Of a stretch of 40,438 bases of DNA, positions 1,913 to 12,221 are shown in pieces (the first letter of the stretch is position 1; every line of letters starts with the position of its first letter). The translations under genes and the position numbers were made by a program. Under the pieces are notes generated by a model. That model was not told where the DNA came from. It did not search any database and worked only from the letters and a program-made list of their open reading frames with translations. The stretch is taken from the IMG/VR virus record IMGVR_UViG_3300022936_000006, positions 1-40,438 of that record. The stretch is one strand, 5' to 3'. This stretch comes from a virus. Taxonomy: Duplodnaviria; Caudoviricetes.

Positions 1913-3326
1913 TCTTAGTGAACTGGTAGTGGCGAATAGACTGGTAAACGTAATCTTTGCATTCGTAACCATTGTATTCAGAGAAAGCAATAACCCATTT
2001 ACTAAATAATTGCTTACTGAAATATTTTTGGGTAAGGTACTCATCAAACTGATTAACAAAATTATTATAAAGCGTAGCCCTGGGTATCGTAACGAATTCA
2101 AAATCCTTCATGAAATCTATGAAATCTATATTTGTTGCAGCTATTAATCGTTTTTCAGGCAAGTTTATAAGCTCTTGATGTACAAGTCCGTTCCTTAAAT
2201 AAAATTGGCAGCATTCAATTATAAACGCGTCAAACAAATAAAACTCATTAGCGTCCCAATCAGTGAACATCATCTTTTTAAATTCATCAAAAGGCGTTCT
2301 ACTACGGTTATAGTACTGGCTTATTTCTAATTCGTGTCTACGCCTAAAATGGCTATTACCTGCGCCCTTTATGGCGTAATTCGTAGTTATAACTACTTTT
2401 GGAGTATCATGAAAACTATAATGTATAGCCTGCATTCCTTTCTTTTCTACATTTATACCATCGGTAAGTACAGAAAATAGCCGCTCGAAATCAAAAGACT
2501 TATTAACATCCTGAAATGACAACAACTTAGTGTCAGGATTTACAGATTGGTACACAAAATTCTTATCAAAATTGAATGTCTTGCCCTCTATTGTAACAGT
2601 TGTTATAAATTGCTCTATTGCCTTTATCAATATGCCTTTCCCTGTTCCGCCCTCCGGGTTGTTAGATATAACCTCATCATTCAGAATAATCGCCGGGCAA
2701 TATGCCGGGTTTTTGTAATTATGCACCAAAAACCCTAATACACTGCAAATTGATTTATATCTTTCAGGGTCTTGATTACTGATATTATACACGAACTTTT
2801 TAAAATCACTATCAGTTAAATCTTCAGGTTCATTGTAATTTCGGCTAAGTATTTGACTTTCCCAAATATAACCATCCAAATCAGAGTATTTATGAGTAGT
2901 TATTTTTCCTTCTGTAACTTTAACTATGCAGTTCTGGTAATACAATTGCATAGCGTTTTTACGGTCTTTACGGAACTCAATTTTCTTTTCCGGTAAAGTC
3001 TCTATAAACTCGTATGATGTTGCTTTAGCGATATTCTTTAGAAAGAATTGATGCATGTGCCTGGATTCTTTAGAATCTACTATAAAGTTTATAATTTCAT
3101 CTTTTAACTCTTTAGTATCTACTACGCGTACAATGTTGTCTATTATTCTGATAGGAGAATATTTACCATCCCCATCACTATAGACAAAATAACCGCGTTC
3201 AACAAAAAATGCTGTTAAGTTAACGAAATCTATTTCCCATTTACCCTGCCCGTTTGTTGAATATAAATCAAAGTGATTGTATTTTTTTTCTGCTGCTATG
3301 TGAGCAATTGACATTTTTGCGCTCAT
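1878..3326 (-). CDS. P-loop NTPase, primase-associated (SF3/D5-like) helicase
   Basis: Walker A PEGGTGKG, Walker B-like LLSFQD, VVITTNY sensor-like motif and RRRHELE; adjacent to the origin. Confidence 0.75.
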   Translation of the reverse strand: MSAKMSIAHIAAEKKYNHFDLYSTNGQGKWEIDFVNLTAFFVERGYFVYSDGDGKYSPIRIIDNIVRVVDTKELKDEIINFIVDSKESRHMHQFFLKNIAKATSYEFIETLPEKKIEFRKDRKNAMQLYYQNCIVKVTEGKITTHKYSDLDGYIWESQILSRNYNEPEDLTDSDFKKFVYNISNQDPERYKSICSVLGFLVHNYKNPAYCPAIILNDEVISNNPEGGTGKGILIKAIEQFITTVTIEGKTFNFDKNFVYQSVNPDTKLLSFQDVNKSFDFERLFSVLTDGINVEKKGMQAIHYSFHDTPKVVITTNYAIKGAGNSHFRRRHELEISQYYNRSRTPFDEFKKMMFTDWDANEFYLFDAFIIECCQFYLRNGLVHQELINLPEKRLIAATNIDFIDFMKDFEFVTIPRATLYNNFVNQFDEYLTQKYFSKQLFSKWVIAFSEYNGYECKDYVYQSIRHYQFTKKITNIDAEITK

Positions 3327-4732
3327 ATGAATTTAGCTGATAAGTGAACTGCCATATTTGGTGATATTGTTTGACTTGATTGTGTGTGTAATTTCTTTAT
3401 TGCCGACTCCATGACTTTACGCTGTTCGTATAAATCTAATGGCTTCGTCTTGACTTTTTCGGCTATTGATATTATAGTTTTTTCCATCGTTATCGGGCTA
3501 TTTTTTGGTACAATTAAAGTGTCTGGTACAAGTTGTAAAGCTATAACCATATCCGAATAAACTACCTCACGCGGAAATAAATGGCCGCAAAATTCACAAA
3601 TCGTACAAGACATATAAATCATACAGCCACATTTAGGATTTGGACATTCTTTCATTGGAGCTACCCCGGCACCAGGCTTATCTGGAAAATGAAATATACT
3701 ATGCCAGTCATGCCTATGCTGAAAATAACCATGCTGCGCAACATTACCAACCTGATCAATAATATTAAAATACTCTTTTCCGGGATAAGGACGTGAACCC
3801 CTGCCAATCATCTGAAGCCATAGGGCTAATGAAGTAGTAAGGCGATTTGGTATTACGTTTATAATACTTGGCTCATCAAACCCGGTTGTAGTCATGTCTA
3901 CAGATTGCAATATAGCATTAGGGGTTTCTTTAAACCACTCGTAAATTTCATCTATTTGGCCCTGTTTCATAGATCCGTCTAGGTGTCTGGATTCGTAGCC
4001 ATGAGATACAAAGCATTCGTTAACCTTTAGGCTATGTTCGATTAATGTATTGAACACAACCGTTTTAAGGTTCTCACCTATCCTTACGTAATTAGCCAAA
4101 ACCCCATCAACTAATTTGGTTTTACTTAATTGGTCGGACATTGATTTTAAATTGTAATCCCCCGCTGTTTTCTTAAGCGCCTTTTTATCGAGCAGATTTT
4201 CAGGACAATGGTGATGAGCTTTTACAAGTCCCTGTGTTGGATCTCTTTGATGTATTTCAATTAATTCACGAGTAGAAATTCCAACAACTATTTGCTCATA
4301 ATCAGCTTTCATAGGATGTTTTTTACTTGCCCCGATAGGTGTAGCCGTAAATCCCAAAATAACCGAGTCACGGAAATGTTCAAATACTTTTTTCATTTCA
4401 CCACGATGCGCTTCATCGATAATAATCAAATTTGTATTTAAATAATTACCTTTTTTTAGCTGATTAACAAACCCTAAAACCATATGCACAGGCACGTGAC
4501 CAGCTCCGAATTTTTCCAGCTTGGCTGCTGCTTGATTAAGTAAATTTTCCCTGTGTACTAAAATACGGCAGACATGATCTGGATTTGCCTTTAAGTACCT
4601 CGATAATAGATAAGCGAACTCAACGGTTTTACCACCTCCTGTTCCTAGTTGAACGCAAATACGTTTATGCCCTTTTGATATAAGCCGTACAATTGCATTT
4701 ACCTGATCTTTTTGGTAATCTCTTGGTGTCAT
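3323..4732 (-). CDS. Superfamily 2 (DEAH) helicase with C-terminal Zn finger
   Basis: PRDYQ, GTGGGKT, DEAH, TATP, TTGFDEP, QMIGRGSR; CPNPKC..CEFC. Confidence 0.92.
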   Translation of the reverse strand: MTPRDYQKDQVNAIVRLISKGHKRICVQLGTGGGKTVEFAYLLSRYLKANPDHVCRILVHRENLLNQAAAKLEKFGAGHVPVHMVLGFVNQLKKGNYLNTNLIIIDEAHRGEMKKVFEHFRDSVILGFTATPIGASKKHPMKADYEQIVVGISTRELIEIHQRDPTQGLVKAHHHCPENLLDKKALKKTAGDYNLKSMSDQLSKTKLVDGVLANYVRIGENLKTVVFNTLIEHSLKVNECFVSHGYESRHLDGSMKQGQIDEIYEWFKETPNAILQSVDMTTTGFDEPSIINVIPNRLTTSLALWLQMIGRGSRPYPGKEYFNIIDQVGNVAQHGYFQHRHDWHSIFHFPDKPGAGVAPMKECPNPKCGCMIYMSCTICEFCGHLFPREVVYSDMVIALQLVPDTLIVPKNSPITMEKTIISIAEKVKTKPLDLYEQRKVMESAIKKLHTQSSQTISPNMAVHLSAKFI

Positions 4733-4843
4733 AAAATAAAAAAAGCCGTGACTGTGAGAAGTTTAGCCACGGCAATTTGAAATTAGTGTTTAACACGCAT
4801 CCTGCTTCTCACTTCAAAATGCATGCCCTCGAATAATAAGAAA
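4733..4843 (-). ncRNA. Structured 5' leader: two hairpins with complementary loops plus a U-tract (element A)
   Basis: 11-bp stem with loop AAGUGAGAAG; 9-bp stem with loop AAACUUCUCAC followed by U7; lies between promoter 4844-4851 and ATG 4732. Confidence 0.65.
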
Positions 4844-4851
4844 CAAATATA
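4844..4851 (-). promoter_or_regulatory. Bacteroidota -7 promoter element TATATTTG
   Basis: Matches TAnnTTTG; intergenic. Confidence 0.7.
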
Positions 4852-5793
4852 CTACAAATTATCTAAAATGTAATCACACAAATCGTATCCTTTTGGTTTT
4901 GATTGTATCATTTTCATAGACCATTGACCTGGTATTAGTTCCTGTAATTGGTTCATTTTTTCAAGCCAACGTTCTTCCGCGCCAACATCAGGATATAATA
5001 CAATTTTACGACCTTTTAGTACATGGCACCTTTTGTAGGTTAGGTTTGTCAGGCTTCCTGATGCAAGCCATATAAAGCCAGGGTATTTTATGGATGCCAC
5101 AATTGCGGTCTTTTCTGATTCAACTATGCAGACTGTTTTATCCAGGAAACGGTTTAATAAATGCTCTCCGTATAAGCACGTATCAAAATTAAAATTAGGT
5201 AAACGCAAAACTTTATGCACCCATGTTATTAAAGGCTTAGGCTCCTTTACCCGCTTACCTGTTTCCGGGTTATATTGCATGATCTTACCGGACCTAACAT
5301 TCCAGTTTATATCAATATACCAAAATATAACTGCTCCCGGCCAATGTTTTGATGTACTTATATGGTGCTGTAAATCATGTAAAGGATAAATTGAATAAAG
5401 CCATTGACGGAAATTATTTGATCTACTCCCTTTAAGTAAAGCACCTCTAAATATATCTTCTGGCAAATAGTCTGTTGGCGGTTCAATATATTCTTTGGTT
5501 ACAAATCCAGGGTCTAAGGTTATATTTTGCGTGTCAGCTATCCATTTAATTGCCTCGTTCTTGGATTTACCAGTATGGCTAATAACAAAATCAATAACAT
5601 CCCCACTTTTACCGCACCCAAAGCACTTAAATATATTTTTGGATGCGGATACCGTAAATGATTTTGAACGCTCGTTATGGAACGGGCACGATGCAGTATA
5701 ATTTGCACCATCACGTTTTAATTCTACAAAATGCCCAATCACTTTAACGATGTCAGAATTTTGCTTTATGGATTTAATTTCTGCGATTGTCAT
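4852..5793 (-). CDS. DNA primase-like protein (CHC2 Zn finger plus TOPRIM-like domain)
   Basis: CPFHNERSKSF..FKCFGCGKSGDVI; IVESEKTA and VLYPD TOPRIM motifs. Confidence 0.88.
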   Translation of the reverse strand: MTIAEIKSIKQNSDIVKVIGHFVELKRDGANYTASCPFHNERSKSFTVSASKNIFKCFGCGKSGDVIDFVISHTGKSKNEAIKWIADTQNITLDPGFVTKEYIEPPTDYLPEDIFRGALLKGSRSNNFRQWLYSIYPLHDLQHHISTSKHWPGAVIFWYIDINWNVRSGKIMQYNPETGKRVKEPKPLITWVHKVLRLPNFNFDTCLYGEHLLNRFLDKTVCIVESEKTAIVASIKYPGFIWLASGSLTNLTYKRCHVLKGRKIVLYPDVGAEERWLEKMNQLQELIPGQWSMKMIQSKPKGYDLCDYILDNL

Positions 5794-6002
5794 AATTTAC
5801 CTGTTTTAAGTGCGTAAGCCAAATCAATATAATATTGTGGCGGACAAAATCCGTTATTAGTGTCAATTAAACAAACCGCATGATGCGCATCATAGGCGTA
5901 AGAATGTCCTAAATGATGCACTGGCATTGAGTTTAAGCAATTCGTTCTATGCGGCTCCGGTAATTTTTGGAAGTGTTGGCGTATGGTTAGGGTGTATTTC
6001 AT
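5790..6002 (-). CDS. Hypothetical protein
   Basis: 70-aa ORF with ATGA-type overlaps to its neighbours. Confidence 0.6.
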   Translation of the reverse strand: MKYTLTIRQHFQKLPEPHRTNCLNSMPVHHLGHSYAYDAHHAVCLIDTNNGFCPPQYYIDLAYALKTGKL

Positions 6003-6154
6003 GACTTACGTTCCATGTATTGGCGGTATTCGTGTAGCAATTCATGAACGTCTATACATTCATCCTGATTCTCTTTGTCATAGTAGAATTGCTTAAGGTT
6101 GTTCTGCTCGCAAAACTCCTTCTCGTGTTTTAATTCGTATTTTTGTTCTGGCAT
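5999..6154 (-). CDS. Small hypothetical protein (51 aa, MPEQKYELKHEKEF...)
   Basis: Manual translation; fills the gap exactly with coupled start and stop. Confidence 0.6.
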   Translation of the reverse strand: MPEQKYELKHEKEFCEQNNLKQFYYDKENQDECIDVHELLHEYRQYMERKS

Positions 6155-6155
6155 T

Positions 6156-6830
6156 TTAAAATAGTTTAGTTTGTGATAAAATCATTTGAACCCTTTTATT
6201 TGCATCATTAAATCTTTCTTCATCAATTTCATGCCCTATAAATCTTCTGTTTAAATTACTACAGGCTATTGCGCATGATCCAGAACCAAAGAAATTATCT
6301 AAAACTAAGTCTCCCTGCAATGAAGACTTTTCTATGAGTAGCTGTATTAACGGAACTGGTTTCTCTGTCGGATGGTTTTCGTTTCCAGTTTTAGGGCATC
6401 GGATAACATTTGATAGGCGTTTACCATTAAGCAATTTTCTTCCCTTTGTTAAAAATAATATCAATTCGTATTGGGGAGCGTAGTCGCCAAATAGGTCTCC
6501 CTGTCCGGCATTATTTTTAAACCAAATTAAAATGTTTTTAAGCTGAAAACCTGCATTAGATGCCTGAATTTTAAATACATCAATATTATGCCAGCTGCAG
6601 AAAACATACGCGTGAGAGTTATCCTTTAGTAACCTAAATTGATCTTTAAACCATTCAGGAAGCCATAGTAAATTATCATCATTTGCAATTGGCCTATGTT
6701 TTATCTTTCTTATGTTTGAAACAAAACTCATTCCATAAGGAGGGTCTGTAACAATAAGGTCTATTGATTCGTCGGCTATTTCTTTGTTTAGTTCAAAGCA
6801 GCTCCCTTTTATTAATTGTATATTGTCCAT
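6156..6830 (-). CDS. DNA N4-cytosine/N6-adenine methyltransferase (beta class, orphan)
   Basis: Motif IV DPPY near the N-terminus, HPTEKP, motif I LDNFFGSGS. Confidence 0.92.
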   Translation of the reverse strand: MDNIQLIKGSCFELNKEIADESIDLIVTDPPYGMSFVSNIRKIKHRPIANDDNLLWLPEWFKDQFRLLKDNSHAYVFCSWHNIDVFKIQASNAGFQLKNILIWFKNNAGQGDLFGDYAPQYELILFLTKGRKLLNGKRLSNVIRCPKTGNENHPTEKPVPLIQLLIEKSSLQGDLVLDNFFGSGSCAIACSNLNRRFIGHEIDEERFNDANKRVQMILSQTKLF

Positions 6831-7027
6831 TATGATGCTAAATAAACTACTATTTCTAAATTATTATTCCTGTTAAATATCCAGCCATCATCACGTTTAA
6901 CCCGCAGTGGATTGGTGAATATGACCGTGTAAATGGTGTCGTAACATTTATGCCTGAACTGTTGGCCGTAATTAAGCCTACCCATTTTTGTTGGCGTTCC
7001 GGTGTCGATTCGGATAGGTAGAGCCAT
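6830..7027 (-). CDS. Hypothetical protein
   Basis: 65-aa ORF, translationally coupled. Confidence 0.6.
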   Translation of the reverse strand: MALPIRIDTGTPTKMGRLNYGQQFRHKCYDTIYTVIFTNPLRVKRDDGWIFNRNNNLEIVVYLAS

Positions 7028-7350
7028 TACACTCTCGATTTTAAAGTTAAATTTTCTGTTGGTTTCTTGAAGTAACGACTAATTACCGCCGCTGCTTTTG
7101 GATAACTTAAACCACTGGCCTCTGCTGCTTCCCGTACGGACATTTTAAGGCCAACGTAGCACTCTATAGCCTTAACTGATATTAACAGCATGCTCTTATC
7201 TTTCTCTCGCTGTATGCCATTAATACGGGCTATTCTGTGTATAGTACTAACCGCAAAGCCTAGCATTGTAGCTATTTCCTGAATTGTTAGCGTGTTGTAA
7301 TTAGCCCGGATAGTTTCTATGTCGGATTTTGATACTCTAGGTGGGTTCAT
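7027..7350 (-). CDS. Tandem HTH DNA-binding protein
   Basis: LTIQEIATMLGFAVSTIHRIA and MSVREAAEASGLSYPKAAAVI helix-turn-helix patterns. Confidence 0.7.
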   Translation of the reverse strand: MNPPRVSKSDIETIRANYNTLTIQEIATMLGFAVSTIHRIARINGIQREKDKSMLLISVKAIECYVGLKMSVREAAEASGLSYPKAAAVISRYFKKPTENLTLKSRV

Positions 7351-7514
7351 TACTTCGTCCTTTTAATTGTTAATACCATACCGCCTAAGCAGCTTTGCCA
7401 TTCTCCCTTACCAAGCCTTTTAAGCCTGGATTTAATGTTTTGTACGGTGTCGTACTTGTCGTATGGAAACGGACGCTTTTCGCCTACCTCCATTGCTAAT
7501 AGTTCTTTTGTCAT
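7350..7514 (-). CDS. Small basic putative DNA-binding protein (start revised to ATG 7514)
   Basis: MTKELLAMEVGEKRPFP...; promoter-like TATCATTG (7525-7518) sits 3 nt before this ATG. Confidence 0.6.
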   Translation of the reverse strand: MTKELLAMEVGEKRPFPYDKYDTVQNIKSRLKRLGKGEWQSCLGGMVLTIKRTK

Positions 7515-7577
7515 GCACAATGATACGGAAAATTGACTAACCAACCAAATTATTTAATGTAACATTTCTGTAACAAT

Positions 7578-7602
7578 AAAAAGCCGGGACATAACCCCGG
7601 CC
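7578..7602 (-). terminator. Intrinsic terminator after the exonuclease gene
   Basis: Minus strand GCCGGG-gttatgt-CCCGGC followed by a T-tract. Confidence 0.7.
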
Positions 7603-7671
7603 AGTTTGATACAATAAGATTTAAATTAAATTTTTACACTTCCCTATTCTGAACCCGGAAAGTTTGGGGTT

Positions 7672-8295
7672 TTACCATTGGCGATTAGCCATTAATTTTT
7701 CTACAAACGCGTCCCTAATAATTACGGCTTCATCAATCCTAATTTTCATTAAATCAATCCTTTCCTGATCTCTGGGGACTATAATTTCATGTGAAGCTAT
7801 ATCACCGTTAAAAATAGCATAGTTTAAGAAGTACGCCTGTTTAGTTCCTGTTACCCACATTTGATGTTGCATTTGATCAATGTAACATTGATCAATTATT
7901 CCATCTGCTATAAGACGGAATAGTTTACCGGGCTTGGGGCATTTGATTTCAAGAACTGAATTATCAGAAACTAATCCATCGGGACTACCGCCTGTATTCT
8001 GATTTAACGCAAAGAAACCACATTCAGTAACTTCTAAGAATTGTAATGATTTTTGCCATTTAAAAAACTCAAATGCTAAAGGCTCCGTTTCAATACCATG
8101 CTGCATATCAAATGAGGTAAAACCTTCATCTTCATTTTGGCCAAAAACAATGTCACAAGCCATATCGAATGCGTATGTTTCGCCCGTTTTACCAAGTCCT
8201 TTTATACCCATTAAATCGTTTATACGGGAGCTTGTGAACTTGCCGTATCTTTGTTGTCTCCACTCCGGACTACGCTGTTGTATTATCTGTGACAT
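7672..8295 (-). CDS. YqaJ/lambda-exonuclease family recombination nuclease
   Basis: QRSPEWRQQRYGKFTSS, MQHGIETEPLA, GGSPDGLV, LEIKCP, QMQHQMWVTG. Confidence 0.92.
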   Translation of the reverse strand: MSQIIQQRSPEWRQQRYGKFTSSRINDLMGIKGLGKTGETYAFDMACDIVFGQNEDEGFTSFDMQHGIETEPLAFEFFKWQKSLQFLEVTECGFFALNQNTGGSPDGLVSDNSVLEIKCPKPGKLFRLIADGIIDQCYIDQMQHQMWVTGTKQAYFLNYAIFNGDIASHEIIVPRDQERIDLMKIRIDEAVIIRDAFVEKLMANRQW

Positions 8296-8803
8296 ATTTT
8301 AAATAAGCTTGTTTTACTTCTTCTGTTAACTGGTATGCTTTTTCAATGGCTTCAACGGTTGCTTTTGCTGCATGCGCTTTTTCAAAATTAGCTTCTGAAA
8401 ATACCGGCTTTACTTTTTCTGCTGGGGGTACTGGATTTATCCTAATGCCGTCCTGAATTTTACCGAAAGCTTTAATATCTCTCAATACGTAGAACTCAAT
8501 TCTTATGCCGCCCCAATTTCCAATGTTCCAGCAATCTATTTCGTTAAAACCTCTTTTACGGGCAAATGAAGATATAATTTTACGGTTAGTTGAATTGAGA
8601 ACCATATCTTTTATGTCCTCTACAAATGAGCAAAAATAACCGTCTGTCTTTTCCCCCGATACATCAACCTTAGTATCATACCAAGCTTCTTTTATGGTAA
8701 AAATTAAAGGACGACCCTCTATTGACATTGCATCTAAATCCGCAGCAGCTAAGTGCGTTGATTTCCTGTATTTCCTACAGTCTATATTTGTTTCTTTTGG
8801 CAT
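8270..8803 (-). CDS. Hypothetical protein, candidate ssDNA-binding/annealing partner of the exonuclease
   Basis: HLAAADL..VLNSTN..WGG..GIRI pattern of a phage family often found beside exonucleases; function inferred from position. Confidence 0.5.
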   Translation of the reverse strand: MPKETNIDCRKYRKSTHLAAADLDAMSIEGRPLIFTIKEAWYDTKVDVSGEKTDGYFCSFVEDIKDMVLNSTNRKIISSFARKRGFNEIDCWNIGNWGGIRIEFYVLRDIKAFGKIQDGIRINPVPPAEKVKPVFSEANFEKAHAAKATVEAIEKAYQLTEEVKQAYLKYVTDNTTA

Positions 8804-9885
8804 TACAATAATGTTTTAGAATCCTGAATAATAATTTTTTTAACCAATGCCATAGCTTCATCAACCCGAAGCTTCATAGCCTTACCTTGATCACTTTGCA
8901 AATCTGGAAACTCTAAACGTAAAGCCTCGAATTTAGCAAAGTAGGCTTTCACCTTTTCTTTGTCCGGAGCAAGTAAAGCAGCTTTCTCTTTGGCTATTTT
9001 TTCGGCTTCTTCTGCTTCAATTCTGGCTTTATCCTGCTCAATAGATAACTGTTCGGCTTCTTGTTTGGCTTTTAGTTCATTTGCTATACGGATGTTTTCG
9101 GCTTGAATTGCCGCTAATTTATCGGACTCAATCTTTGCTAACCTGGCAGCTTCCTGATCTTTTTTATCCTGCTCAATTTTAGCCATCCTATTTGCTTCCG
9201 CTTGCTTTTCCTGCTCCGCTTTCAGTTTTTCATTCTCTAACCGGATTCGCTCGTTTTCTTCTGCTTGTTTCCGTTCAGCCTCCAATCGCTCTGACTCTGC
9301 TTTTTTTTCTGCCTTAATTCGGGCCAATTCAGCAGCTTTTTCTTGCTCAATTTTTGTGTTAAAAGCTAGCTTTTCATTCTCTAAATACTTAGCAAATGAT
9401 TCTTCATCCATAGCCCGTAAGTCAACAAACTGGTTAATTTCTCCGTACGGCTCAAGTAATGCAACTCGTTCCGTATACAGCACTTCTTTTTTAGCGGCTT
9501 CAATACGCTCCTGATGTTTTTCTACTGCTGTAAATTCCGCCTCTGTTAACAGGCATGTGTTTTTTACAACGTTAAAAAGATCCTGTATTAAATTCCCTTC
9601 CACCAAAATGATAGCCTTTAAATCATCTTTGATTGTTTCGGCGCCAGTTCTGATTTTAACCATTTTTAAACGAGCTTCACGAGCCTTTTTACTGTCCTCT
9701 GCTGTTGGACTAACTTTATCCAAATCAGATAGCACAGCAGCCAATTCGTGGTACTGATTCATTGATGGAGCAAACGCAACCGCATGTTGTTGTGCTTTTG
9801 ATAATTCGATTTTACTTTTTGAAACAACCTCTGTAAATTCTGGTTGCTCGATTACTGATAATTCTTGTGTTTTAACTTTTGCCAT
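8803..9885 (-). CDS. Coiled-coil protein of the recombination module
   Basis: Long E/K/A/R-rich helical region; AREARLKMVKIRT and APDKEK motifs. Confidence 0.7.
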   Translation of the reverse strand: MAKVKTQELSVIEQPEFTEVVSKSKIELSKAQQHAVAFAPSMNQYHELAAVLSDLDKVSPTAEDSKKAREARLKMVKIRTGAETIKDDLKAIILVEGNLIQDLFNVVKNTCLLTEAEFTAVEKHQERIEAAKKEVLYTERVALLEPYGEINQFVDLRAMDEESFAKYLENEKLAFNTKIEQEKAAELARIKAEKKAESERLEAERKQAEENERIRLENEKLKAEQEKQAEANRMAKIEQDKKDQEAARLAKIESDKLAAIQAENIRIANELKAKQEAEQLSIEQDKARIEAEEAEKIAKEKAALLAPDKEKVKAYFAKFEALRLEFPDLQSDQGKAMKLRVDEAMALVKKIIIQDSKTLL

Positions 9886-9989
9886 TTTATTTTTTTAAAA
9901 AAACCCGCTTCAAATTTCCCAGGCACTACACTGGTTATTATTCACGGGCATTGAAATTAGGTTAACAAGGTAGTGCGCTTGTTTGTGGT
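9886..9989 (-). ncRNA. Structured 5' leader with complementary loops plus a U-tract (element B)
   Basis: AACAAG[CGCACUAC]CUUGUU; CCAG[UGUAGUGC]CUGG on top of a GCCCG/CGGGU stem followed by a U-tract; linker CUAAUUUCAA identical to element A. Confidence 0.6.
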
Positions 9990-9994
9990 GCAAT

Positions 9995-10858
9995 TTAGGT
10001 ATTCTTTTCCTGCCTGAATGTAACATTGTAGTGATGCAATATATCTTCTAAATCTGATGGGTAAAGTACCGTTTGTACATCATTCAAACGCATAATTGTT
10101 ATGGTATCCTGTCTTATTATTACTGTTTTTCCTCCCCACAATGATTTGGTTATTTCTACAGGCTTATTCTGTTCATCTATCCATTTAAGGGCGGCTTCTT
10201 TTGAATGGAAAGCTTTGGATTTATCTATAGACTCACGTTCCATGCATGTATATGTAACATCGGCCTGTAATTGGAATGGATCTTCTAAGTACCATTCCCC
10301 TCTATTTTGACCACCTAGATATTTTCGGTACACTGGCGTAATAAAATCACCAACATAAAGCGGTACGCCGTCCTCTGACTTCATGACGAATACCGGAACA
10401 GGAATATTGCATTCGGCAGCGAAATCTGAGAAGGGAACTATTTTATAGCCAGCCCCATTAAATGAATGCTGAAATTTGTCATGATACTTTATTGCATTTG
10501 GTAGCGGAAAATAAACACCCCTTCTGTTTACAGCATCAACTCCCGATGACCACACCCACCCCTTACCCTTGTAATGCCCCATGAGCAATTTAAACTCCCT
10601 TTCATTATTCACCTGAATAGCAACCTTACCATCAAGCAACCCGGTTTTTTCGGGTTCGGCTGGTATTATTTCCCCCCATTTTTCTACTGACGCTCTATAT
10701 ATACAAAAACCAGTAGGTGATTCTGCCACTGAATCACACCCATCAATAAAAAACTTACCCGTACTAACGGCAGTTTCATTTGGACTCAATACACTGTGGT
10801 ATTTTGTCCCCGCAGGATAATCCCGCATTGCTTTTTCTAATAGTTGGTACTTTTTCAT
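9995..10858 (-). CDS. Hypothetical modular phage protein (start revised to MKKYQLL at 10858)
   Basis: ORF track; the upstream extension is occupied by another small ORF. Confidence 0.7.
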   Translation of the reverse strand: MKKYQLLEKAMRDYPAGTKYHSVLSPNETAVSTGKFFIDGCDSVAESPTGFCIYRASVEKWGEIIPAEPEKTGLLDGKVAIQVNNEREFKLLMGHYKGKGWVWSSGVDAVNRRGVYFPLPNAIKYHDKFQHSFNGAGYKIVPFSDFAAECNIPVPVFVMKSEDGVPLYVGDFITPVYRKYLGGQNRGEWYLEDPFQLQADVTYTCMERESIDKSKAFHSKEAALKWIDEQNKPVEITKSLWGGKTVIIRQDTITIMRLNDVQTVLYPSDLEDILHHYNVTFRQEKNT

Positions 10859-10863
10859 CTTTT

Positions 10864-11001
10864 CTAAAACCAAATTGTTTTCACTGTTAAAATTAATAGG
10901 CAAATTAAAACCACTACCGCCCATATAAGGACGATATTTAACGGCTGGCTGCCCGGCTTATCCTCGTGCATGTATAAGCCTTTAAGGTGTTTGTTTTTCA
11001 T
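10864..11001 (-). CDS. Small single-TM protein (45 aa)
   Basis: MKNKHLKGLYMHEDKPGSQPLNIVLIWAVVVLICLLILTVKTIWF, manual translation. Confidence 0.6.
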   Translation of the reverse strand: MKNKHLKGLYMHEDKPGSQPLNIVLIWAVVVLICLLILTVKTIWF

Positions 11002-12047: not shown

Positions 12048-12221
12048 ATGAGTTTAACACAGGCAAAACAAAAAGTAAAAGACAGGCGTGATTACGTATA
12101 CAAGGCATACGTTAACAAGCCTGCAGATTTAGCGGTAACAACTTTGGTTAATACGCTATCAAAAAAATACAAAGTTTCAACAGTTACCATATTTGGCGAC
12201 ATAAAAAAAATGAAGGGGTAA
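12048..12221 (+). CDS. Small HTH regulator in a Cro-like position (start revised to ATG 12048)
   Basis: LSKKYKVSTVTIFGDIK helix-turn-helix pattern; first gene of the rightward operon. Confidence 0.7.
   Translation: MSLTQAKQKVKDRRDYVYKAYVNKPADLAVTTLVNTLSKKYKVSTVTIFGDIKKMKG

Follow-up and report, generated by a model that had tools for sequence, protein, structure and literature searches.

The guanidine-IV riboswitch (GGAM-1/mepA motif) consists of two linked hairpins, the second of which is an intrinsic terminator, with a pseudoknot formed between their loops. In the available portions of two accounts, the kissing loop is described as favoring transcriptional read-through (PMC11611296), conserved loop bases bind the ligand, and the rigid kissed rod possibly stretches the linker so that the outer pairs of the terminator cannot form (PMC7736828). 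The motif lies before genes of the sugE/mepA type.

Other described systems also employ complementary RNA segments. The c4 RNAs of phages P1 and P7 are relatives of the P4 CI RNA, and in I-complex plasmids the letters of a loop define specificity groups, an opposite-strand antisense RNA is needed, and control acts on translation. For the P4 CI RNA (seqA/seqB/seqC) and IsrK of Gifsy-1, the accessible part of one report describes a self-complementary leader in which premature termination gates replication or antirepressor genes and whose short isoform could act on its own transcript (PMC4825925). In the I-complex plasmid ColIb-P9 (Inc RNA, together with the repZ pseudoknot), the available text describes an upstream stem-loop whose loop pairs with a complementary segment downstream and which controls a replication gene (PMC10724649). 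Finally, Fremin et al. (2023; PMC10690425) list DNAVirus_8377, an element of 105 nt with a predicted terminator, found in 88 viral sequences with a Bacteroidetes host where one is assigned, upstream of HNH_3/NUMOD4/AP2 genes; their accessible main text discusses neither DNAVirus_8377 nor a kissing-loop leader. In the literature that we searched, almost nothing concerns RNA-level gene control in phages of Bacteroidota.

Here we describe a leader, element B, in a complete virus record of 40,438 bases with direct terminal repeats, analyzed over its whole length (the window). On the evidence of sequence comparison, we regard B and its relatives as a real, uncatalogued variant of terminator-based leader attenuators.

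Genome context

The 40-kb window carries a siphophage gene set. From about position 12,100 down to the left end of the window, all called genes lie on the minus strand, in the order small early genes, a 360-aa protein and a 177-aa protein of unknown function, YqaJ exonuclease, HTH, methylase, primase, SF2 helicase, DUF5906 protein, VRR-NUC, and small terminase. No integrase was found in the window phage. The host is likely a member of the Bacteroidota, because the genome has TANNTTTG boxes and A-rich starts without Shine-Dalgarno sequences and its nearest cultured matches are Cellulophaga and Flavobacterium phages; the promoter and start consensus was taken from the available part of PMC6847099. 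A blastn search of window positions 3300–11000 against cultured phages returned three short matches only.

The first gene behind B (8803..9885, minus strand) encodes the 360-aa coiled-coil-like phage protein, which has no family in Pfam or PHROG. It is followed by the genes for the 177-aa protein (phrog_21613) and the YqaJ-like exonuclease (7672..8803, minus strand), an order also present in the related locus L229. We looked for functions of the 360-aa and 177-aa proteins and found none. Behind a second leader, element A, lies the gene for the SF2 (ResIII/Helicase_C) helicase (3323..4732, minus strand). Single-protein locus searches of IMG/VR with B's downstream protein and with the helicase returned nothing, and alignment queries were needed.

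Several other features accompany these genes. A plain intrinsic terminator at 7582–7602 (minus strand), not flagged as a kissing-loop leader, lies 3′ of the YqaJ exonuclease gene and may close the unit that B opens. Eleven copies of AATTACAAA are clustered at 1610–1911, around the end of the DUF5906 gene, five on the plus strand (1610–1734) and six on the minus strand (1799–1911); the window holds 12 where 2.2 are expected, and the cluster likely marks a replication origin whose iterons lie in both orientations. An ORF of 35 codons with a hydrophobic stretch occupies 10864–10971 (minus strand), and the gene after it probably starts at 10858 rather than 10924. A hairpin at 10936–10915, considered as a third leader element, was rejected; it sits inside this ORF.

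Element B

Element B spans 9997–9886 on the minus strand, in the intergenic interval between a stop codon at 9995 and the AUG at 9885. A preliminary description had resolved it into a promoter-like box, two hairpins (P1 and P2), a U-tract, and the start codon, each of which is present where it had been placed. The promoter box, a variant of the −7 type (TAAATTGC, 9990..9997), overlaps the upstream stop and is weak, scoring 1.8 against a family median of 11.4; it is also present at the orthologous junction of L229, which is without the leader. P1 (9964..9983) pairs AACAAG (9983–9978) with CUUGUU (9969–9964) across an 8-nt loop, CGCACUAC, and its 6 bp give a stability of about −3.9 kcal/mol. Flush with the 3′ side of this loop is the kissing word GCACUAC (9970..9976). 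The AU-rich linker that follows (9950..9963) contains a 10-mer common to A and B (9951–9960). It had been quoted at 17 nt, of which the first three bases belong to the 3′ arm of P1, leaving 14 nt. P2 (9903..9949) is a terminator-like hairpin with a large internal loop, an upper stem of CCAG/CUGG, an 8-nt apical loop (UGUAGUGC, 9930–9923), and a predicted energy of −14.9 kcal/mol. Its loop holds the word GUAGUGC (9923..9929), and its 7-nt complementarity to GCACUAC is exact. The last part of B (9886..9903) joins seven U (9903–9897) to an A-rich translation-initiation region before the AUG, and the U-tract doubles as an AU-rich initiation region.

Taken alone, B is a weak case; the case for it comes from comparison across phages. 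Its fold is no more stable than shuffled sequence (z = −0.19), and a match of at least 7 nt to the P1 loop arises in the shuffled P2 interior in 0.35% of shuffles (p = 0.0035). An alternative fold, a nested long hairpin, melts P1 and uses the linker, so that pairing of the B loops is not necessarily a true kiss.

A second −7-like box (TATATTGC, 10043–10027, minus strand) lies within the end of the upstream gene and is directly followed by CACTACA, a second 7-nt partner of the B P2 loop. Such an upstream second partner occurs in 1 of 40 family members against 0.67 expected, and this one may be due to chance.

Element A and its relation to element B

Element A, also on the minus strand, has a consensus −7 box just past the primase stop (TATATTTG, 4844..4851, score 15.0) and a 13-bp P1 (4792..4827) whose 10-nt loop carries the kissing word GUGAGAAG (4805–4812). 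Its P2 is a terminator hairpin of 9 bp (4745..4773) with CUUCUCAC (4754–4761) in the loop, followed by a U-tract (4738–4744) and the helicase AUG at 4732. The fold of A has a z of −2.57 against shuffles.

B had been introduced as a second, divergent copy of A. The architecture is indeed common to the two, with no detectable sequence homology, but "copy" overstates the relation because a covariance model of five A-type leaders matches A and not B in the window. The loops differ as described, and cross-pairing between P1 and P2 loops of A and B reaches at most 1 nt. The difference had been called covariation within one genome; covariation does exist across genomes, and the phrase is loose for A versus B because they are different subtypes.

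Loop complementarity across phages

An alignment of 50 helicases fetched 191 loci, a redundant set in which many loci are truncated and one is the window itself. Loop-match statistics were computed on the helicase loci, the loci of B's downstream gene, and cultured phages, with loci selected for their loops excluded. Among leaders with a promoter, a terminator, and an AUG, the loops match over at least 7 nt in 14 of 37, against 0.73 expected from swapped partners. Without the promoter filter, the same loci yield 19 of 134 such matches (2.06 expected), and terminators without an AUG show a loop match in 24 of 1026 (15.85 expected). In whole records (25 virus records, six cultured-phage stretches, and the window), a set made up mostly of records picked for holding a member and in which one element is counted twice, the figure is 25/68 versus 0/68 for a parallel-complement control.

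The kissing words themselves recur. A search of IMG/VR with B's two words plus the terminator end gave 19 hits, comprising five full members, five of other architecture, six plain hairpins, and three apparent chance matches. B's exact word pair is found with unrelated stems in L207, L211, L213, L222, and L225, which represent four lineages. A's words returned 11 members among 12 hits, seven of them distinct. Both sets were selected for loops and show recurrence, not a rate of conservation. A different type of leader, in which an unpaired 5′ word matches the loop of a long hairpin, was seen in L212, L215, L217, and L221. These leaders lie about 80 nt before acidic ORFs of 190–260 aa, which may encode scaffold proteins, and their promoters do not appear Bacteroidota-like.

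Compensatory change is evident where leaders can be aligned. In five A-type leaders, a small alignment in which P2 of L098 is off by one column, the kissing helix is 100% paired (40 cells), 4 of its 8 pairs are changed on both sides (all from L098), 6 of 12 P1 pairs are changed on both sides, and P2 covaries too; the covariation score was reached by none of 500 shuffles. The leaders of L037 and L170 are nearly identical, yet 5 of the 9 kissing-word positions differ between them, with every change compensated. L270 (G008) carries tandem leaders at 10147 and 10765, before an HNH gene and a replication initiator, with similar flanks and different loop words, an arrangement that apparently reflects duplication and then loop change. 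The loops differ in all eight within-genome leader pairs (8/8), as had been suggested for distinct loop pairs in one genome. The excess of loop matches and the compensatory changes of the A type likewise support the original proposal of a family of cis-placed leaders, with complementary and covarying loops, before DNA-metabolism genes.

The family as listed has 45 members, of which 40 were parsed (L021, L043, L128, L251, and L255 were missed). L025 was mis-parsed and dropped from the rod-length analysis, and several P1 boundaries are uncertain. One candidate member lies in the cultured Cellulophaga phage phi10:1 (L249; KC821618.1, about 10253–10336), ahead of gp024–gp026 (primase/helicase); five other cultured Bacteroidota phages (phi18:1, phi46:1, lotta8-1, FPSV-S1, and P12024S) gave no candidate leader in the whole-record scan. 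Across 151 genomes of the family of G027, the A-type covariance model, a narrow model that misses B itself, gave one match, an unrelated tandem repeat. In L320 (1420–1680; G106, of the same family), we observed an intergenic repeat in tandem, about 90 nt long and bearing a terminator-like hairpin, unrelated to the kissing-loop leaders.

Geometry, promoters, and terminators

In 31 of 40 P1 loops (5′-flush in 10) and 26 of 34 apical P2 loops (5′-flush in 9), the kissing word directly abuts the 3′ arm of the stem, and the spare 5′ loop bases are mostly A. A 3′-flush word with 5′ A bases resembles known kissing complexes such as HIV-1 DIS.

The family has the general layout of an attenuator, namely a promoter box, a short leader, a GC stem with a U-tract, and a gene; the box of B, though weak (1.8), is retained in L229. 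Of the 40 members, 38 have a −7-like box no more than 60 nt upstream, versus 6 of 40 control windows. All 40 parsed members have 6–8 U within the first 9 nt past P2, a count to be read with the parser's requirement for a U-tract. The AUG lies 5–45 nt past P2 (5–14 nt in 24 of 38 members and 17–45 nt in 14 of 38, with B at 18), a range that suits termination better than ribosome occlusion.

The heights of P1 and P2 are anticorrelated (rho = −0.47, n = 39; −0.41 for n = 27 lineages), and total rod length stays near 31 bp, with a standard deviation of 4.7 versus 6.5 by chance (p = 0.0008), in statistics whose subfamilies are not independent. Both A (13+8+9) and B (6+7+19) fit this length, A with a long P1 and short P2 and B the reverse. 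Because a taller P1 goes with a shorter P2 and the sum is less variable than chance predicts, the leaders are consistent with a rod acting as a ruler, although two subfamilies, or a limit on total length, could also produce the anticorrelation. Rod length against linker length gives a rho of −0.38, opposite to the prediction of a tether model, from parses that are noisy. The estimated span ratio is below 1 at the median (0.89), and the stability of terminator hairpins often far exceeds that of the kiss duplex. The nascent minimum-energy fold (ViennaRNA, no pseudoknots) pairs the kissing words in nested form in 27 of 39 members, a result that does not discriminate because ViennaRNA cannot model pseudoknots.

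A third complementary site was considered and rejected; one count gave 5 downstream repeats against 0.67 expected, 4 of them from one lineage, and a further count gave no excess. SeqC-like third sites of at least 7 nt numbered 1, 1, 1, and 0 of 40 against 0.3–0.9 expected. An antisense promoter was rejected as well, with antisense −7 boxes in 10 of 40 members versus 11 of 40 controls and none of 40 above shuffles. Tyrosine and serine integrases (PF00589, PF07508) were found in 0 of 23 records and 0 of 12 near-complete ones, one record being labelled a provirus. Classical lysogenic immunity is therefore unlikely.

The linker 10-mer

The identity of the 10-mer in A and B is exact, and it occurs just twice in the window, at 4777–4786 and 9951–9960. 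The preliminary description had further taken it for a conserved single-stranded box and had named its absence from homologues as evidence to the contrary. That absence is what we find: among 40 parsed members, the 10-mer is exact in two (A and B), has 2 mismatches in two, and has at least 3 mismatches in 36, and it is absent from all same-loop homologues of A and of B. Linkers of the family are 79% A+U and have no fixed motif except an A/U-rich run ahead of the GC stem, and no conserved protein-binding sequence was found in the linkers of the 40 members.

The likeness between the A and B linkers is real but modest. It falls in the top 1% of 949 different-loop pairs, with about 22 of 25 aligned bases alike, and the other seven within-genome pairs are without the box and show ordinary linker likeness (15–82%). 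At least 10 nt are held in common by 12 of 780 linker pairs. A scan of IMG/VR for the box plus a terminator gave 14 hits that look like chance, none with the two-hairpin architecture as judged by eye. Local common descent or gene conversion probably accounts for the 10-mer in A and B, a factor specific to this genome being a less likely cause, and the linker itself may act as a spacer.

Downstream genes and turnover of the leaders

All members for which an ORF was called lie in cis, ahead of a gene. The 25 downstream genes that were scanned comprise eight HNH/endonuclease-VII-like nucleases, ten primase/helicase/initiator/VirE-like genes, and seven without assignment; many further downstream genes are helicases by ascertainment. 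In phages with the same primase–helicase–DUF5906 module, the position of the leader shifts. It precedes the primase in L097 and L098 and, in L099, an HNH gene that is itself ahead of the primase. A sits between the primase and the helicase, L103 and L019 carry the leader past the helicase, and in L016, L101, and L105 it precedes a small gene ahead of the helicase. In close relatives, primase and helicase abut at the place of A.

The closest relative of B's gene is found in L229 (64%). At the junction of B, this locus shares the downstream gene order, the TAAATTGCA box, and an A-rich start, but about 77 nt of leader are missing. Of the 17 loci of B's downstream gene that were examined, 4 carry a leader; they come from two lineages, one without a U-tract, and the leader is thus dispensable there. 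In the lineage without the U-tract (L231/L232/L238), the loop match is present; the leader of L231 (about 240–320), before a homologue of B's gene, has a 6-nt loop match. Together, the shifting positions, the state of L229, and the count of 4 in 17 argue for gain and loss of the leader as a whole.

Discussion

Computationally, the phage leaders share with guanidine-IV the two linked hairpins, the terminator as second hairpin, and the loop-loop pseudoknot. In contrast to the conserved, ligand-binding loop bases of guanidine-IV, their loop words vary widely among 40 members and no conserved ligand-like core is present, and they precede helicase, primase, initiator, and HNH genes rather than sugE/mepA-type genes. 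As in the P4 CI and c4 RNAs, one segment of the leader is the complement of a site further upstream in its own transcript. However, no downstream seqC-like site and no integrase accompany it, and the complementary segment belongs to an intrinsic-terminator loop rather than to a processed internal RNA. Unlike the I-complex plasmids, these leaders show no antisense promoter signal. They do not qualify as members of the guanidine-IV or P4 CI classes, despite a guanidine-IV-like shape and P4 CI-like gated genes. Rfam 15 gives no gathering-score match in the window, none over A or B at E ≤ 10, and, in 13 member loci, one tRNA only. We found no description of the kissing-loop leader family in the searched literature, which lacks most subscription papers; DNAVirus_8377, compared by its table description only, may overlap it. 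Since a loop match is kept with different letters in dozens of related phages, B is likely to be an RNA gate, so far uncatalogued, that acts on DNA-metabolism genes of phages.

We propose that B, as a member of this family, acts as a ligand-free transcription attenuator, in which the kiss would hinder closure of the terminator and let part of the transcripts into the recombination genes. The proposal is made by analogy, the sign of the kiss effect (read-through) being drawn from guanidine-IV only, and we put its chances at about even. Host RNA polymerase would start at the Bacteroidota −7 box or arrive by read-through from upstream early genes. P1 and P2 would then fold and their loops pair over 7–9 Watson-Crick pairs, as covariation indicates for the family and prediction suggests for B. 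P1, kiss, and P2 would stack into a rod of about 30 bp, barely spanned by an AU-rich linker of 14–20 nt, and the stretched linker may delay the bottom terminator pairs while the polymerase sits on the U-tract, as proposed for guanidine-IV. With no ligand pocket, folding kinetics would set the split between a terminated leader of about 95 nt and read-through, and helicase, primase, recombination, and HNH genes would be kept at a low or timed dose. Against this model stand the fold of B (z = −0.19), its weak P1, its poor promoter, its nested alternative, the rho of −0.38 between rod and linker, and the leader without a U-tract.

Other readings start from the same observations. A released terminated leader might bind the P1 loop of new copies in trans, block the cis kiss, and raise termination as leader accumulates, each loop pair being a separate channel, with a logic like that of P4 CI and IsrK. 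The differing loops of all eight within-genome pairs, including the apparent duplicate pair in G008, are what separate channels would produce, as are the 5 of 9 loop positions at which the near-identical L037 and L170 differ. The gated genes are replication genes, as in P4, and IsrK, in the available account, is an earlier case in which a terminated leader acts on its own read-through transcript (PMC4825925). Yet 0 of 8 common loops is not significant given the diversity of loops, the counts of a third seqC-like site (1, 1, 1, and 0 of 40) are near expectation, 23 records are without an integrase, and an intramolecular kiss should outcompete binding in trans; we consider this reading unlikely, though far from negligible. 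Equally tentative is its extension, in which the leaders would be an RNA-only clock of lytic Bacteroidota phages. The cis kiss would pass the first transcripts, and released leaders would poison it in trans, shutting replication, recombination, and homing-nuclease genes through orthogonal loop channels; co-infecting phages with the same words would cross-silence, and the cassette of about 90 nt would move between junctions, possibly by HNH homing. The kiss could instead form on the finished terminator and strengthen termination or protect a compact small RNA of about 95 nt, with read-through requiring something further, such as a protein or infection time. Both stems covary and can coexist with the kiss, and the span ratio (median 0.89) and the frequent excess of terminator over kiss stability fit as well. 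We nevertheless hold this distinctly unlikely, given that guanidine-IV, the one experimentally studied analogue in the literature consulted, is an ON switch, that no conserved protein-binding sequence was found, and that members with a called ORF are all in cis before a gene.

Control might also be translational, with P2 occluding the initiation region, which has no Shine-Dalgarno sequence, and the kiss modulating ribosome access. Structure near the start lowers initiation in Flavobacterium, according to the available part of PMC6847099, the AUG is 5–14 nt past P2 in 24 of 38 members, and one lineage has no U-tract; but the spacing of 17–45 nt in 14 of 38, including B, and the U-tract in 40 of 40 parsed members, though required by the parser, make this improbable. 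The model first offered for the linker, in which the 10-mer binds a phage or host factor that co-regulates both operons, draws on the high rank of the A–B linker pair (top 1% of 949, about 22 of 25 bases) and on the exact 10-mer at just two sites in the window. We judge it very improbable, because 38 of 40 members and every same-loop homologue are without the box, the other seven within-genome pairs are unremarkable, 12 of 780 linker pairs have at least 10 nt in common anyway, and the scan anchored on the box yielded no members. That B is a decayed remnant or a chance arrangement without present function would agree with its z of −0.19, its weak promoter, and the leaderless state of its closest relative. 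It is nonetheless hard to credit beside a perfect 7-bp match in the geometry of the family (p = 0.0035), a word pair found in four other lineages, and an intact U-tract.

The presence of a candidate in the cultured phage phi10:1 makes the leader directly testable. With their freely variable loops, the leaders would form a natural library for the effect of loop-loop contact on intrinsic termination, and they may supply orthogonal leader parts for synthetic biology in Bacteroidota. If the ligand-free attenuator that we propose is correct, it would show that the switching geometry of guanidine-IV is a general device.
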